Below are positions 6,727 through 15,449 of a DNA stretch of 64,000 bases, one piece after another (the stretch's first letter is position 1; every line of letters starts with the position of its first letter). Position numbers and translations under genes: made by a program. The notes beneath the pieces are model-generated. The model saw only the letters and a program-made list of their open reading frames with translations, was not told the origin of the DNA and searched no databases. This DNA is from Chloroflexota bacterium (lineage in GTDB: Bacteria > Chloroflexota > Anaerolineae > Anaerolineales > Anaerolineaceae), in NCBI GenBank assembly GCA_029777225.1, contig JAKOSR010000090.1:637-64636 (forward strand), read 5' to 3'.

Positions 6727-7518
6727 TTAGGGTTGCATGGCGCCGAAGAGCACCAACCAGGCCAGGATGGACTTGGCCACCAGGCTAAGCACAATGTAGG
6801 TGCGCTCGCCGTACAGGTAATTCTTCCACTTCCCAACGCTTTTGTATTGCAGGATCATATTGATGGGGAAAGTGTTGAAGGCGACGAAGTATGTGCCGAC
6901 GATGGCCCACACAAACCAGGGAACGCTGGCATAGTTGCCGTTGCCAACCATATACAGGACAATGGCGATCCAGGGAGCAATGCCGGCGATGGAGCCCCAG
7001 ACGAAGGGTCCCCAGTTGATTTTGCCCTTGGTGGTGCCCGAATTGAGCTGCTCCATTACGAGTCCGAACAGGTTCATGGACGCGTTCACAATGAAGATGA
7101 GCACCAGGGAGGCAATATCGTAAATGCCAAACAAGGTCGAGATAAGCACGATCATCACCGAGGAGCTCAACGCGTACTCAAACCAGCGGAAGCGGTTGAT
7201 GCCTTTCTGCAGGTCCGCGTTGTAAATGGCGTTGGTTTTGTTCGGGATTGAAATGAGCGCGTGCGCCAGGGCTGAGATGAGTAAAAAGGCAGCGACAAGA
7301 ATGCCGAATGGCAGCTTGAATAATTCCTTGGAGGCCAATTCCAGAGAGCGAGTCTGTTCGTTGAAAGCCAGGAAGTTTTGGGTAATGACAGGTGAGAATT
7401 CACCGATTTTCTGAATGACCCGCGTGGCCAGGAAAAGCATGGCGATGCCCTGGACGAGGTGCAGGGCACCCATTAGCTTGTTGAAGTTTCTTAATTTCTT
7501 GAGTGCAGTTGTTTCCAC
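6727..7518 (-). CDS. Heliorhodopsin (7-TM retinal protein)
   Basis: 263 aa with a 7-TM profile. GTG start with GGAG 5 nt upstream. Strong motif identity to heliorhodopsin 48C12 as I recall it: RFRWFEYALSSSVMIVL (counterion Glu, here E114), VNASMNLFG, and GERTYIVLSLVAKSILAW (Schiff-base Lys, here K249). The conserved His residues are present as H20 (ALHLVQ) and H86 (SALAHAL). Confidence 0.85.
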   Translation of the reverse strand: METTALKKLRNFNKLMGALHLVQGIAMLFLATRVIQKIGEFSPVITQNFLAFNEQTRSLELASKELFKLPFGILVAAFLLISALAHALISIPNKTNAIYNADLQKGINRFRWFEYALSSSVMIVLISTLFGIYDIASLVLIFIVNASMNLFGLVMEQLNSGTTKGKINWGPFVWGSIAGIAPWIAIVLYMVGNGNYASVPWFVWAIVGTYFVAFNTFPINMILQYKSVGKWKNYLYGERTYIVLSLVAKSILAWLVLFGAMQP

Positions 7519-10908: not shown

Positions 10909-11004
10909 GCAGGTTTCCGTCTCGTTTTGGCTTATTTTACACGGAAAACAGGGGGTTAAAAATTTTTGGAAAATCAACTAAAATTTCCACAGGAGCGTGA
11001 TGCC

Positions 11005-11964
11005 ATGGAAAATACTGATAGATTGCCTTTGCCCTCCCAACGAGCACAGTTTGTTCGTTCGGAAGAAGTTGAAAAAGCCCGCCTGGGCCACAAGCCGATT
11101 GTCGCCCTGGAATCCACGGTGATTACCCACGGCCTTCCCTGGCCAGAGAATCTTGACCTGGCGCTTTCGATGGAGCGCACTGTGCGCGAGAATGGGGCTG
11201 TGCCGGCCACGATTGCCATCCTGGATGGACAAGTGCGGGTTGGGTTGAGCGGTGACGAGTTGGAAGCGCTTTCCAAGGCGACCGGGGTGCGCAAGGTGAG
11301 CGTGCGCGATTTTGGTCCGGTGATTGGAAAGGGGCTGAGCGGTGGTACCACGGTGGCGGCGACGATGTTTGTGGCTGAAAAGACAGGCATCAAGGTGTTT
11401 GCCACAGGAGGCATTGGAGGCGTGCACCGGGACGCGCCGTATGATGTTTCCGCCGATTTACCGCAGCTGGGCCGTTCTCCGGTGGTGGTGGTGTGCGCGG
11501 GCGCCAAGTCGATTTTGGATATCCCGAAGACGGCGGAATACCTGGAAACCCAGGGCGTTCCGGTGATTGGTTACCAAACGGACGCGTTCCCAGCGTTCTA
11601 TTCGGTGGATAGCGGCCTAAAAGTGGAATTCCGGGCTGATACAGCCCTGGAAGCTGCCCAGATTGCTGAGGCGCATTGGAACCTGGGCTTGCGCAGTGGC
11701 GTACTTTTGGTGGTTCCACCACCCGCGGCCACAGCGGTACCGATTGACAGGATTGAAGAAGTCATCAAACAAGCCCTGGCCCAGGCGGTTGAAGCGGACA
11801 TTCACGGCAGCGCCATGACCCCGTTCCTGCTCGCGCGAGTGAAGGAACTGAGCGGTGGTGACAGCCTGCGGGCGAACCTGGCTTTGCTGCTAAACAATGC
11901 CGCGGTTGCCGCCCAGGTGGCTGTGGGCATGAGCCAGAAGGCTCCGATGGCCAGGTACCTGTAA
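11005..11964 (+). CDS. psuG: Pseudouridine-5'-phosphate glycosidase
   Basis: IndA/PsuG signature PIVALESTVITHGLPWPENL plus ATGGIGGVHR. The ATG at 11005 has AGGAG 9 nt upstream; the track start at 10966 is less likely. Confidence 0.85.
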   Translation: MENTDRLPLPSQRAQFVRSEEVEKARLGHKPIVALESTVITHGLPWPENLDLALSMERTVRENGAVPATIAILDGQVRVGLSGDELEALSKATGVRKVSVRDFGPVIGKGLSGGTTVAATMFVAEKTGIKVFATGGIGGVHRDAPYDVSADLPQLGRSPVVVVCAGAKSILDIPKTAEYLETQGVPVIGYQTDAFPAFYSVDSGLKVEFRADTALEAAQIAEAHWNLGLRSGVLLVVPPPAATAVPIDRIEEVIKQALAQAVEADIHGSAMTPFLLARVKELSGGDSLRANLALLLNNAAVAAQVAVGMSQKAPMARYL

Positions 11965-12000
11965 GGGCTCACGCAGCCGAACGATTAACAATAAAGGAGT

Positions 12001-12036
12001 CCGCGCGTTGTGATGGAACAACGCGCGGGCTTTATT
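12001..12036 (+). terminator. Terminator hairpin after psuG
   Basis: CCGCGCGTTGT-GATGGA-ACAACGCGCGG forms an 11-bp perfect stem, followed by GCTTTATT (a weak U-tract). Confidence 0.55.
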
Positions 12037-12055
12037 AATTCCCGCGCGCAGTCGT

Positions 12056-12084
12056 TTGACTCTGATTCTTAAAAGTTGTAATAT
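12056..12084 (+). promoter_or_regulatory. Sigma70-like promoter for the 12.4-14 kb hypothetical module
   Basis: The -35 is TTGACT (12056-12061), the spacer is exactly 17 nt, and the -10 is TAATAT (12079-12084). It lies in an AT-rich island just after the psuG terminator. Confidence 0.4.
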
Positions 12085-12382
12085 GAAAATGTCCAAAGCA
12101 ATTTTGTCCATTTTTTCATCATAAATAGCATTTTTATCCCTGTCCTAATTTGCATCTTCGCGGAGGGCCGACCCGGAAACGGGTGAGGTAATTATTGGAA
12201 CGTACTTATGGATATTATTTGGGCATTTTGCCCTGAAAGGCCAGGTGATGTCCATCGAAAAGCAAACAACCAGGCGCGAGGATGAACAAGCCATTGCGCG
12301 AGCAGGGTATTCAGAGGGAGATTAAAGGAAACTGAGACCCGGCATGCAAGGCGCTGGGTTAGCGTATTCCGAGGAGGAAAAA

Positions 12383-13096
12383 ATGACGTTACAGGTTCGT
12401 GTTGGAGCTGAATGGGTTAATACGTTTCATTCCAATTACTGTACGCAGAACAACCTAAGCTATCGTGATGACCACGCGGTCGGTTTCTACGACCAAATGG
12501 GAAGCCACGGCCATGTGAAGGTGTTCTGTTGGGGAAACGACAATGCCTGGGAGACTGATTTTTGCCATCCAACCTTTGGTGGCGACTCCCTGAACTGGAT
12601 AGACAATGTCCACTTCCTGTTCTACTCAGACCATGGTGGCAACTGGAGTAACACGATGCACATCGCGTTCTCCGCGCAACAGCGTTATTGCCTGAGCCCG
12701 TCCACACAATGGCGGTTGGGCGAGAGGATGCTGAAATGGTTTGTGCTGGATTGCTGCCAATGCGTGCTCAACCACACCGCGGCGCATATTGGGGCTGTCT
12801 GGTTTGGCCCAACGCGTGGCGTGCATCTGATTTTTGGGTTCATTGGGAACGGCACGGACAGCTGGTGGAATGATGACCTGGGCAGCGATTTTGGTCACGA
12901 CGCAGCCACGGGTTCCCGCCTGGCGAACAGCTGGGTTGACCATGCTTATTCCTGGTGGCTGGATGATGATTCCATCGCCATTGCTACCGGCGCGACTGAA
13001 GCTGAGGCAATCAACCGGCGTGAAAACGAATCGGTGAACTGGCGTGATTACAACGTCACCTCAACCTCATGGCTGGCCTGGAAGTATCGGGAATGA
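12383..13096 (+). CDS. Hypothetical protein with a clan-CD (caspase/legumain/clostripain-like) His...Cys dyad; candidate minimal cysteine peptidase
   Basis: ATG at 12383 with GAGGAGG 5 nt upstream. FLFYSDHGGNW resembles the metacaspase FHYSGHGG and clostripain HGGGW His motifs. About 40 aa later, KWFVLDCCQC resembles the DSCHSG / FDAC Cys motif. The protein is Trp-rich and has no signal peptide. Confidence 0.6.
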   Translation: MTLQVRVGAEWVNTFHSNYCTQNNLSYRDDHAVGFYDQMGSHGHVKVFCWGNDNAWETDFCHPTFGGDSLNWIDNVHFLFYSDHGGNWSNTMHIAFSAQQRYCLSPSTQWRLGERMLKWFVLDCCQCVLNHTAAHIGAVWFGPTRGVHLIFGFIGNGTDSWWNDDLGSDFGHDAATGSRLANSWVDHAYSWWLDDDSIAIATGATEAEAINRRENESVNWRDYNVTSTSWLAWKYRE

Positions 13097-13126
13097 GATG
13101 GGTGAAACAAAGAAGGGAGTTACAAA

Positions 13127-13993
13127 ATGCCTGAAATCAACTTCTTGAACAGGATGGAAAAAGCTCCTGATCTGCCGGTCAAGATTTACTCCCTGCAGAG
13201 AGCGGGGGTCTCCACGAGAAAAGTGTTGGAATTCGCGAAACAGATGGGATTAGAGGCGGTTCTTGAAAAAGCGCGTTTGCAAACTGAGAAAGACCGTATC
13301 ATTCTGGCGCAGGGTCAAATCCTGCTGCAATGTTTCAAGGAATCCGGCGGAATAAGGTTTATTGACCAGTCGCGGTGGATGGTGGACGACCAGAAATCCG
13401 ACCTCGCGTTTGATGACGAGAAGGCCTTCGAGATGGCCAGAGCCATCATAAAAAAGCACAAACTCGCCAAGGCAGACGAATTCAAGCCGCTGAAGGTGAC
13501 CCATCTGCATGTTGGTTCCATGGATGAAAAGATGAAAAACGTCCAGGAACGGGTGATTGACGCGGGTGTGATTTTCCAGCGGATGGTGGATGGTGTGCCC
13601 GTCCTCGGCCCGGGTGGAAAGTTGATGATTTTCCTGGACGCGGAAGGCGGGATGACCGGGCTGGAGAAAATCTGGCGACCCATCCAGGAGGTTTTCCGCA
13701 AAGTTGAGGGGCTGCGCGAGCCAAAGCTTGCCGAAAACCAACTGGTGCGCTTCCTCAAGACTCGTGGCATCCAGAAAGCGGATGTTGAATCCGCGGAGTT
13801 TGGCTACTTTGAACTCGGCTGGCATGACCGGCAGCAAACCCTGCAACCGGCCTACGTCTTCAAGCTGCGCCTGCCGCTGAATGAGGGCGAAGGCTACATG
13901 AAATCGGCGTTTGTGGTTGAAGCCGCGAAGAACGCGGTCGGGACGCTTATCCGTTACAAGCGTGTAATGGAAGAGCAGCCTCCGCGCAAGTAA
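13127..13993 (+). CDS. Hypothetical protein (288 aa), probably co-transcribed with 12383-13096
   Basis: GGGAG-containing RBS (AAGAAGGGAGTTACAAA-ATG), 30 nt after the upstream stop. The composition is coding-like and I recognise no motifs. The long antisense ORF 13250-14299 is Arg/Pro/His-rich junk. Confidence 0.75.
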   Translation: MPEINFLNRMEKAPDLPVKIYSLQRAGVSTRKVLEFAKQMGLEAVLEKARLQTEKDRIILAQGQILLQCFKESGGIRFIDQSRWMVDDQKSDLAFDDEKAFEMARAIIKKHKLAKADEFKPLKVTHLHVGSMDEKMKNVQERVIDAGVIFQRMVDGVPVLGPGGKLMIFLDAEGGMTGLEKIWRPIQEVFRKVEGLREPKLAENQLVRFLKTRGIQKADVESAEFGYFELGWHDRQQTLQPAYVFKLRLPLNEGEGYMKSAFVVEAAKNAVGTLIRYKRVMEEQPPRK

Positions 13994-14006
13994 GCTATTG
14001 CCTGAC

Positions 14007-14044
14007 AGACCCCGGCAAAGTTTCACTTTACCGGGGTCTTGTTC
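14007..14044 (+). terminator. Hairpin after 13127-13993 (possible weak terminator)
   Basis: AGACCCCGG-15 nt loop-CCGGGGTCT followed by TGTTCGTG, which is a poor U-tract. Confidence 0.4.
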
Positions 14045-14052
14045 GTGAGGGC

Positions 14053-14550
14053 GTGTTGGACTTATCGCTTGATGAAATTGAGCGCAGAATGCGCCCAGGA
14101 GAGTTTTCCCAGGCGGGGTTCTTGGGCTGGGATGAATCCCTGGCGGATGTGCTGGCACAAGACGCGCGGGTGCTTCACGAGCTGGGAATAACCGCGGTAG
14201 ATTTGGCCAGCGCGCTGGAGGATTTGCTGGCTGCCGCCCTTTCTGGTGACCCGCCGCATAACCAACGCGAAGGCTACCTGGTTGATATCCATCTGACACC
14301 CGGCTTTCAGATTTGCCCTTTCGCGCCAGACCCCGACCACGCGCAATGCACGGCTGGCGGCGGTGTGCGCTTTGGCTCCGTGGACTGGCGCATTCGAAAC
14401 AAACGCACCGGCCAGCACTTAAAAGGACCTGGATTAATCACCCACCTCATCCGCGCGCACGGCTTTTTTGAAGGGACAGGAACGCCATACCGTGTTGACC
14501 CGGCCGGGCTGGCCAGGCTATTGGAATTGGGTCCGTTCGCAAGGGCCTGA
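14053..14550 (+). CDS. Hypothetical Cys/His-containing protein (165 aa)
   Basis: GTG start and coding-like composition. Contains ICPFAPDPDHAQC and ITHLIRAHGFFEG. I recognise no family. Confidence 0.6.
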   Translation: MLDLSLDEIERRMRPGEFSQAGFLGWDESLADVLAQDARVLHELGITAVDLASALEDLLAAALSGDPPHNQREGYLVDIHLTPGFQICPFAPDPDHAQCTAGGGVRFGSVDWRIRNKRTGQHLKGPGLITHLIRAHGFFEGTGTPYRVDPAGLARLLELGPFARA

Positions 14551-14561
14551 ATTGTGGGGCG

Positions 14562-15449
14562 TTAATTGCCTTTGCTGGTGGGAGAGGGCCAGGGCGTGGC
14601 GGTGGGCCAGGGTGTACGGGTTGGCAGAGGCGTGTTGGTGTGAGTGGGGGTTGGGGTAAGCGTACGGGTGAGCGTTGGGGTGATGGTGGGCGTGCTGGTG
14701 GGTGGATTACCCAAGACCCTGAATGAACCCGAGAGAATCCATTCCCGGCCAATAAAGAATTGGACCTGGTAGAGGCCTGGCAACCAGTCCGCGGGGGGCA
14801 TTTCGAGCACGGCGATGCCATACCCTCCGGACCCACCCTCCCAGCGGCCGGTATCCACCTTGACGGTGGTATCGCCACGCAGCCATATCTCCGTCCACTG
14901 CACGCCATCGCTCATGTAGTTGTAGCTGTAGGCCGCGTAGACCTTTTTTAGGGGGTTTTGGAACTCAAATGCCGGCTCTATGGGCTGAAAATCATCCCCC
15001 ACGGCCTCCGCGAAGACAATATTGCTAAAAACAAAGTCCGGGTTGGGGGTCACGAGGGCTTCAAATTGCGTGGCAATCACATCGGGGACAAAAGGCGTGT
15101 TGGTGACCGAGGGCGTATTGGTCAGGGTGGGAGTGAGCGTGATGGTGGGGGTGAGCGTAATGGTCGGCGTGAGGGTGATGGTGGGGGTGAGGGAAGGCGT
15201 CAGGCTGGGTGGGAAATAGCGGTAGGCAAGGGACTCGCCCCAGCGGAAGTTCGCGAAGGTGAAGACGCTCAACAGGATGGCAAGCAAAACCAGGCTGACG
15301 CCCAATTCATATTGCTGGCGCTTCTTGAAGAAGAAGGGCAGATGTTTGCCCGAGCGGAAGGCGCGCGCGGCCCTGGTGAAAAACCAAATCGCGCTCAGGC
15401 CAGCCAAAAGGCCGATAACGATTACCGTGGAGCGAATATCGATTGCCAT
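14562..15449 (-). CDS. Membrane-anchored protein with Pro/Thr repeat linkers
   Basis: N-terminal TM segments (VIVIGLLAGLSAIWFF, SLVLLAILLSVFTF), then the repeat LTPSLTPTITLTPTITLTPTITLTPTLTNTPS, a globular domain and a C-terminal PT-rich tail. Confidence 0.8.
   Translation of the reverse strand: MAIDIRSTVIVIGLLAGLSAIWFFTRAARAFRSGKHLPFFFKKRQQYELGVSLVLLAILLSVFTFANFRWGESLAYRYFPPSLTPSLTPTITLTPTITLTPTITLTPTLTNTPSVTNTPFVPDVIATQFEALVTPNPDFVFSNIVFAEAVGDDFQPIEPAFEFQNPLKKVYAAYSYNYMSDGVQWTEIWLRGDTTVKVDTGRWEGGSGGYGIAVLEMPPADWLPGLYQVQFFIGREWILSGSFRVLGNPPTSTPTITPTLTRTLTPTPTHTNTPLPTRTPWPTATPWPSPTSKGN
15115..15204. repeat. In-frame 18-bp tandem repeat encoding (T-L-T-P-T-I)n
   Basis: Three near-identical units lie at 15133-15150, 15151-15168 and 15169-15186 (GTGAGCGTGATGGTGGGG and variants). 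They are flanked by degenerate units. Confidence 0.8.

Follow-up and report, generated by a model that had tools for sequence, protein, structure and literature searches.

A mobile, leaderless gene cassette of Bacteria and Archaea encoding a predicted caspase-fold peptidase of family DUF6345 and a PepSY-like candidate regulator

In the cysteine peptidases of clan CD, the histidine of the dyad lies on a loop after strand beta3, with a glycine adjoining it and a small three-stranded sheet following beta3, and the cysteine lies on a loop after strand beta4 (PMC4357240). Genes for other cysteine proteases are found beside, and co-transcribed with, the genes of cognate inhibitors, as in the staphopain-staphostatin and SpeB-Spi pairs and the C10 proteases of Bacteroides with their staphostatin-like genes, where a small or medium-sized partner is thought to restrain the protease (PMC3462683). 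Both kinds of system are compared here with a cassette of three genes, P1, P2 and P3, at positions 12383-14550 (plus strand) of a 64,000-nucleotide stretch of DNA (the window; contig JAKOSR010000090.1, positions 637 to 64,636, of assembly GCA_029777225.1) from a Chloroflexota bacterium of the Anaerolineaceae. A first-pass annotation of the window, made from its letters without database searches, had picked out these genes as a self-contained unit headed by a minimal caspase-like protein. The three open reading frames (ORFs) were confirmed, the trio recurs outside this genome, in 35 of the 41 core loci of the survey described below, and P1 appears to be a clan-CD-type peptidase accompanied by a partner that resembles the pro-domain of its own secreted relatives.

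P1 belongs to the Pfam family DUF6345 (PF19872): over residues 10-216 it scores 123.7 bits (E 1e-35), above the gathering threshold of 26.9. The statement of the first-pass annotation that nothing at the locus matches a described system has to be corrected to that extent, though the family is one of unknown function. A word-indexed search gave 167 homologues of P1, about 230-250 amino acids (aa) long and 53-89% identical to it, from very different lineages, and PF19872 is present in every homologue among the matches listed. No paper on the function of DUF6345 was found in the literature, where the single match is a 536-aa protein of Tannerella forsythia, predicted to be an outer-membrane protein and recorded in the vesicle proteome.

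The motif FYSDHGGNW of P1 carries His84, and FVLDCCQC, with Cys124 and Cys125, follows it so that His84 and Cys125 are spaced 41 residues apart. These are the motifs that had been read from the letters as a protease dyad about 40 residues apart, H97 and C138 of that numbering being His84 and Cys125 here. In an alignment of 117 P1 homologues H84, G85 and G86 are invariant, C125 is kept in at least 90% and C124 is variable. An exhaustive profile search widened the DUF6345 family to 1,020 representative clusters at E <= 1e-3, 38 of which reach 1e-30; among 127 divergent representatives H84 is found in 113 of 114 and C125 in 111 of 112, position 85 is Gly or Ala, and H148, D59, W119 and W184 are highly conserved too. 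The dyad is thus the best-conserved feature of the whole DUF6345 superfamily, which argues for catalysis.

The AlphaFold2 model of P1, built on the 117-homologue alignment, has a mean predicted local distance difference test score (pLDDT) of 97.6. A Foldseek search of the PDB with this model returned clan-CD structures in all of its top 50 matches (CHAT, MALT1 and caspases, with probability up to 1.00); the best match is SAVED-CHAT (8tl0, 4.4e-5), followed by MALT1 (from 5.6e-5) and then by caspases-7, -3, -9 and -8. On these matches the fold is assigned to the alpha/beta/alpha type of the caspases, in which a central beta-sheet is mostly parallel. Its first beta-strand starts at residue 6, strand 78-82 leads into His84-Gly85, short strands follow at 85-88, 91-95 and 104-106, and strand 119-123 leads into Cys125. 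The order of the dyad and the positions of the strands are thus those laid down for clan CD, with the His ahead of the Cys, each after a hydrophobic beta-strand, a Gly next to the His and a small beta element after the His loop (PMC4357240). The caspase-hemoglobinase-like fold and the clan-CD order of the His/Cys pair that the first-pass annotation had proposed for P1 have therefore both come through modelling and alignment, and we predict that P1 is a clan-CD-type (caspase-fold) cysteine peptidase with a His84/Cys125 dyad and an intact active site.

Among clan-CD proteins, the resemblance is to the group of caspases, MALT1, the metacaspases and orthocaspases of family C14, and CHAT proteins such as SAVED-CHAT, which are the only structures that the fold of P1 retrieves. 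The D-x-C in front of the presumed nucleophile of P1 also recalls the DSC of metacaspases and the D-M-C of MALT1. Unlike these relatives, P1 has no p10-type linker and no CARD, death, TPR, SAVED or other sensor domain, and it carries a Trp-rich, family-specific C-terminal extension (residues ~190-237), tryptophan making up 16 of its 237 residues. It also has no signal peptide, pro-domain or transmembrane segment; the Trp-richness and the bare, leaderless architecture had both been seen correctly from the letters.

P2, which had been described as a protein with no recognisable motif, turns out to have a recognisable fold. Its AlphaFold2 model (pLDDT 93.0) consists of an N-terminal domain and two PepSY/YycI-like alpha+beta modules, and Foldseek matches it to 5coz (1.2e-10), YycI (2o3o, 3.8e-8), YycH (9a5d, 3.5e-5) and the propeptide of vibriolysin MCP-02 (3nqz_A, 4e-3), so that the repeated alpha+beta module is that of the PepSY/FTP/YycI-like superfamily. 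P2 itself reaches no Pfam threshold (DUF4901, 15.2 bits against a cut-off of 27), and searches of PDB sequences gave chance-level matches only; among the 58 members of its family, hits at or below threshold are to DUF4901 in 27 (best 8.8e-7), to FTP in 13 and to YycI in seven. The C-terminal tail is conserved (Q..R, with R287 kept in at least 90%) and modelled at lower confidence. Like P1, P2 has no signal peptide, N-terminal hydrophobic segment or transmembrane segment.

The relationship of P2 to the protease family itself is seen in secreted DUF6345 proteins. One of these, P0449, has a signal peptide, a P2-like region at 33-282 (5e-23 with the P2 profile) and the DUF6345 domain at 347-542, and the layout is repeated in P0437 (2e-17), P0381 (9e-16) and P0382 (1e-11). 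The alignment of the P2 profile to such proteins covers nearly all of P2 and keeps the motifs SGA.RY, GPG.K, WR.I and LQP.Y. A region homologous to P2 thus lies between signal peptide and catalytic domain, in the place of the pro-region of these zymogen-type relatives, which gives P2 the look of a pro-domain supplied in trans rather than of an effector that is cleaved. In the Armatimonadia (L053, L055 and L057) the P1-like and P2-like proteins are separate and each has its own signal peptide. The wider DUF6345 family is furnished with Ig, PKD, CBM96, dockerin and SprB modules, and most relatives have signal peptides, which points to an extracellular location for most of the family; the subfamily of the window is a leaderless version of it.

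With respect to described partners, P2 shares the repeated alpha+beta module with the FTP/PepSY propeptides of the M4 thermolysin family, of which that of vibriolysin MCP-02 (3nqz_A) is an example, and with YycH and YycI; the weak FTP, YycI and DUF4901 signals of its family and the propeptide position of the P2-like region in secreted DUF6345 proteins fit the M4 propeptides as well. Unlike these propeptides, P2 is a leaderless protein in its own right, and its partner is a cysteine protease where theirs are metalloproteases; the role of P2 as inhibitor or chaperone is predicted. YycH and YycI, unlike P2 as proposed here, act on a histidine kinase and not on a protease. To our knowledge, pairing with a PepSY/FTP pro-domain has been described for metalloproteases and not for caspase-fold enzymes, and we know of no PepSY-like partner of a C14 or CHAT protease. 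The Spi inhibitor of SpeB is homologous to the pro-segment of the protease itself, which is the same logic as that proposed for P2. The proteases of the staphopain, SpeB and C10 operons are, however, papain-like (clan CA) and secreted, with the inhibitor in the cytoplasm, whereas P1 is clan-CD-like and leaderless; here, moreover, there is a third conserved gene, and the fold of P2 is PepSY-like, not lipocalin-like.

The association of the three genes was followed in a survey of one genome per species, which found 53 loci; 41 of these (L012-L052) make up the core-type set, in which genes were assigned by hidden Markov model (HMM) scans of six-frame ORFs, the distribution of P2 being taken from the HMM scans of P1 and P3 loci. 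In every one of the 40 core loci that have room for it, P2 is the next gene downstream of P1 and is read from the same strand; in the remaining one, L014, a contig edge cuts the cassette and the remainder is found on L070. P3 stands behind P2, in the same gene order, in 35 of the 41, and P1-P2 occurs without P3 in L033, L039, L042, L043 and L047, so P3 is a frequent but dispensable accessory. The cassette is present in more than 12 phyla, across which P1 retains its 53-89% identity. Bacterial carriers include Chloroflexota, Actinomycetota, Acidobacteriota, Bacteroidota, several proteobacterial classes, KSB1, Verrucomicrobiota, Eremiobacterota, Rokubacteria and Armatimonadota, and archaeal ones Thorarchaeota (of the Asgard group), Thermoplasmata and Nitrososphaerales; the sole isolate or cultured carrier among the surveyed genomes is Geothrix alkalitolerans SG263 (L029), which offers a way into experiments.

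The neighbours of the cassette are unrelated from locus to locus: 129 flanking genes represent 105 Pfam families, none of which occurs in more than three loci. Some copies have been interrupted by insertion sequences (IS), with an IS630-like DDE_3/HTH transposase inside P2 on a Bryobacterales chromosome (L021:6870-7952, minus strand) and a DDE_Tnp_4 transposase inside P1 in an Actinomycetota metagenome-assembled genome (MAG; L044:5182-5991, plus strand), and frameshifted or fragmented copies are seen in L015, L050, L052 and L054, so that several copies are decaying. The cassette is thus both conserved and mobile, with a patchy distribution of the kind expected from horizontal gene transfer and without conserved neighbours. 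In a Thermoplasmata archaeon (L010:2350-3138, plus strand, and L011) a gene for a papain-like Peptidase_C1 protein lies directly upstream of P1-P2, and P3 is missing there.

For P3, 204 homologues were detected, 47-68% identical to it; they share an invariant N-terminal motif, M13-R-P-G-x-F-S-x-x-G-F-L, and the invariant residues include M13, S19, G22-F23-L24, C88-P89, C99, H131-L132, H136 and F138-F139-E140-G141. The H-x4-H that had been read from the letters is correct (H131-x4-H136), and the other motif noted there is CPF-x8-C (C88...C99) and not CPF-x9-C. P3 scores 19.1 bits with Pfam DUF7919, below the cut-off of 27 (E 0.0016), and since similar sub-threshold matches are given by 49 of 53 members of the family, P3 is probably a distant relative of DUF7919 rather than a member. 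No mention of DUF7919 was found in the literature, searches of PDB sequences with P3 gave chance-level matches only, and P3 also has no signal peptide, N-terminal hydrophobic segment or transmembrane segment. A genome scan with the P3 alignment separated two populations. Close relatives (at least 45% identity) always follow P1-P2; remote ones (28-41% identity), found in Cloacimonadota, Planctomycetota, Verrucomicrobiota, Kiritimatiellia and DPANN archaea (loci L089-L143, e.g. L109:3950-4426, L098:3968-4420 and L122:3974-4426), have no P1 or P2 nearby. C88, H131, H136, E140, R147 and P150 are common to both populations, and C99 is found only in the subfamily of the triad. On its conserved residues, P3 is best taken for a small protein, recruited to the cassette, that bears a putative metal site of the Cys/His/His(/Glu) type.

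At about 35 of the remote loci the P3-like gene comes directly after a gene for a 367-aa protein with Fer2, FAD_binding_6 and NAD_binding_1 domains (NqrF-like), either starting 4 nt behind it or overlapping it by 46 nt, and in L109 the NqrF-like gene is itself preceded by NqrB-, NqrC-, NqrD- and NqrE-type genes. From this arrangement the remote P3-like gene may encode an unrecognised accessory factor of Na+-NQR.

The reading of the cassette that we favour, with moderate confidence, is that of a cytoplasmic cysteine protease with a regulatory partner, a pro-domain acting in trans. P1 would be a leaderless protease of the cytoplasm, using the His84/Cys125 dyad. P2 would bind P1 as a folding chaperone, as a reversible inhibitor or as both, and P1 would cleave its substrates only once P2 had been displaced, degraded or cleaved. 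P3 could modulate the P1-P2 complex in a metal- or redox-dependent manner, or else be a substrate or an adaptor. The co-transcription of cysteine-protease genes with those of their cognate inhibitors is a precedent for the arrangement (PMC3462683).

Several observations weigh against this reading. The link between P1 and clan CD is at the level of the fold, with template-modelling scores (TM-scores) of 0.35-0.51. A Pfam scan of P1 at E <= 1 gave DUF6345 alone and no C14, CHAT, C11, C13 or C25, and hhalign against human caspase-3 (a hand-entered sequence) returned a probability of 0.03. No NCBIfam model matched P1, and neither phmmer nor a profile search of PDB sequences found a clan-CD chain, so a direct sequence link of P1 to known proteases was rejected and the clan-CD assignment is a matter of fold and motif logic only. 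Having failed the C14 and CHAT profile test, P1 is not filed in either family and stays with its own, DUF6345. As to P2, there are fusions of the reverse order in L056 and L059-L063, with a signal peptide, then DUF6345, then the P2-like region. As Rosetta-stone evidence the fusions of either order tie P1 to P2, but with both orders in existence P2 is not necessarily a pro-domain of the classical N-terminal kind. PepSY/YycI-like domains are, besides, not always inhibitors, YycH and YycI being regulators of a kinase. Finally, no protease accompanies the remote relatives of P3 in their nqr operons, so that the role of P3 is not intrinsically tied to proteolysis.

The first-pass annotation had leaned towards a protease-activated effector, and this is the likeliest of the alternatives, though we consider it unlikely. 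Phage infection, stress or some other signal would prompt P1 to cleave P2 or P3, and the product would be a toxin or regulator, by the logic of the gasdermin/protease systems or of Craspase and Csx30. Craspase (TPR-CHAT/Csx29 with Csx30-Csx31) and the bacterial gasdermin-protease systems are indeed compact modules with a caspase-fold protease beside small proteins, and the genes of the cassette are tightly linked in operon-like fashion; the conserved tail of P2, with its near-invariant Arg, or the R-M-R-P-G motif of P3 could serve as cleavage site, and the patchy distribution and IS-disrupted copies would suit an accessory or conflict system. In contrast to those systems, the cassette has no gasdermin, sigma or anti-sigma component, and P1 is without a sensor of the CRISPR, cyclic-nucleotide or NLR type. 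P2 shows no pore-forming, nuclease, transmembrane or toxin-like feature; its PepSY/YycI-like fold and its counterpart in the pro-region of secreted relatives suggest instead that it regulates P1 or helps it to fold. At E <= 1 no PADLOC-DB v2.0.0 model matched P1, P2 or P3, the Pfam survey of the 129 flanking genes gave no enrichment of defence genes, and tblastn with P1 found nothing in phage and plasmid collections.

One locus has a context that would suit an effector system. In an Actinomycetes MAG (L005, 1-5051 and 7424-11412) the cassette is surrounded by genes for Patatin, an nSTAND1 NTPase, SIR2_2, BTAD, PemK, two PIN/MazE-type modules and Peptidase_S8. No other locus shares this conflict-type context, and in L006 the cassette lies among housekeeping genes. 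A known defence system was accordingly rejected as the identity of the cassette, there being no PADLOC match, no enrichment in the flanks and no generality to the island of L005.

It is distinctly unlikely, in our estimate, that the dyad of P1 serves acyl transfer rather than endopeptidase action, although clan CD does include transamidases and ligases. P1 would on that account either resemble legumain/butelase or GPI8 as a transpeptidase or ligase, or work as an amidase on a modified protein or a small molecule, with P2 as its substrate-binding subunit and P3 as a metallo-cofactor protein of that pathway. The unusual conservation of P1 across phyla and its wealth of tryptophan suggest constraints tighter than those on a generic protease, and the nqr operons of the P3 superfamily hint at cofactor or redox chemistry. 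Against this, the wider DUF6345 family shows the classic architectures of secreted proteases (signal peptide, Ig, PKD, CBM96, dockerin and pro-region), and metabolic genes do not accompany the cassette in any consistent way.

Less probable again, and in our view very improbable, is that P1 is a degradative protease exported by a non-classical route, with P2 serving only as a cytoplasmic safety inhibitor in the manner of staphostatin. Most DUF6345 relatives do have signal peptides and surface or carbohydrate-binding domains, and cytoplasmic inhibitors encoded beside secreted cysteine proteases have their precedent (PMC3462683); yet P1, P2 and P3 all lack signal peptides and transmembrane segments, the first strand of P1 begins as early as residue 6, all close homologues are equally leaderless, and no genes for secretion systems accompany the cassette. 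That the genes are three unrelated neighbours with His and Cys motifs of chance resemblance, as the failure of any Pfam clan-CD model to match and a promoter match not above chance might suggest, is refuted by the gene order, found again at 35-40 of 41 loci from more than 12 phyla, by the fusions of P1-like and P2-like regions, and by the dyad itself, singled out by fold search and conservation alike.

The features of the locus are collected in Table 1. The 237-aa form of P1 that the first-pass annotation had chosen is the better of two alternatives (ATG 12383, or ATG 12344 for 250 aa): GAGGAGG stands at 12372-12378, 5 nt before ATG 12383, and the P1 homologues all begin at the residue equivalent to this start. 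P2 starts 30 nt after the stop of P1, also as first noted.

Table 1. Features of the cassette and its immediate surroundings in the window
Feature	Position	Strand	Remarks
psuG-type gene (Indigoidine_A family)	10966-11964		Upstream neighbour of the cassette
Hairpin after psuG	11998-12031		GC-rich; inverted repeat I2, 14-nt arms, 93% complementary; terminator-like; upstream boundary of the cassette
Candidate sigma-70-like promoter, TTGACT-17-TAATAT	12056-12084	+	9/12 match; putative function
Putative long 5' leader	12085-12382	+	From composition, inverted repeat I3 and minimum-free-energy (MFE) fold
P1 gene	12383-13096	+	237 aa
Putative catalytic His84 codon	12632-12634	+	In P1
Putative catalytic Cys125 codon	12755-12757	+	In P1
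P2 gene	13127-13993	+	288 aa
P2-P3 intergenic hairpin	14007-14039	+	Inverted repeat I1, 15-nt arms; -28.6 kcal/mol, z = -3.35
P3 gene	14053-14550	+	165 aa; 164 aa if the start is TTG 14056
Putative metal site of P3	C88 (14314-14316), C99, H131 (14443-14445), H136, E140	+

The terminator proposed on the psuG side corresponds to a real, terminator-like hairpin. The promoter proposed behind it is present and plausible on its sequence, its match being not above chance: a scan of the region found three promoter-grade sites against 1.5 expected. The leader of about 290 nt can likewise be retained as a putative feature, in a stretch (11965-12382) where the G+C content is 0.47 against 0.57 for the whole window, though it is not conserved in any of the 12 other loci compared. 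A 12-nt stretch near its 5' end (12109-12120, CATTTTTTCATC) is complementary to the Shine-Dalgarno (SD) sequence and start codon of P1 (12374-12385, GAGGAAAAAATG), and the two are paired in the MFE fold of the leader; on this model the pairing could occlude the initiation of P1 translation. The fold of the whole leader is not significant (z = -1.17), and no Rfam family matched the ~300-nt leader at E < 0.8. A regulatory RNA in the leader was rejected on these three counts (fold, Rfam and conservation), and the local anti-SD pairing alone is noted. The hairpin between P2 and P3 had been called weak, which its folding energy contradicts; because no clear U-tract follows it, it may work as an attenuator or contribute to processing or stabilisation. 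No convincing direct repeats flank the cassette as an insertion scar.

Downstream, the cassette meets a convergent block of envelope-related genes on the minus strand, encoding a Thr/Pro-rich 295-aa protein, a PALP enzyme, FemAB-family proteins and glycosyltransferases. The 295-aa ORF (14562-15449, minus strand), the 3' end of which is 11 nt from the stop of P3, has an N-terminal hydrophobic segment and tandem TLTPTI/TPTxT Thr/Pro-rich repeats at both ends, without a recorded Pfam match; with these features it resembles a spacer protein of the cell surface. A heliorhodopsin gene (PF18761) is located about 5 kb upstream of the three genes (~6727-7518, minus strand), beside a gene for a multi-PAS histidine kinase. 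Its position was taken from L001:1601-2392, the contigs being syntenic with the window and encoding an identical P2.

For DUF6345, a family of about 1,000 clusters at 50% identity without an assigned function, these observations provide a concrete hypothesis, that of a clan-CD-type cysteine peptidase acting through His84 and Cys125, and the obligate partner P2, with the look of a PepSY/FTP-type pro-domain, becomes a candidate regulator. What is new here, on the strength of the models, would be a caspase-fold family that travels with a PepSY-type pro-domain in trans and a metal-site partner as a mobile leaderless cassette, though this is not categorically new. A triad so highly conserved from Chloroflexota, Acidobacteriota, Bacteroidota and Actinomycetota to Thorarchaeota and Thermoplasmata, and yet mobile, probably performs a portable, self-sufficient cellular task. 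In its fullest form, which we think quite unlikely to hold as a whole, the proposal is of a cytoplasmic proteolytic switch spread by horizontal gene transfer through Bacteria and Archaea, the Asgard group included: P2 would hold P1 latent, a metal or redox signal would act through P3 to free it, and P1 would then cut proteins of the cell or of an invader, abortive infection and growth arrest under stress being examples of where this might happen. If that were true, DUF6345 would join clan CD as a new peptidase family, under a regulatory logic undescribed for relatives of the caspases. Small stand-alone caspase-fold proteases that come with a regulator of their own are attractive, too, for studying the control of caspase-like activity in prokaryotes.

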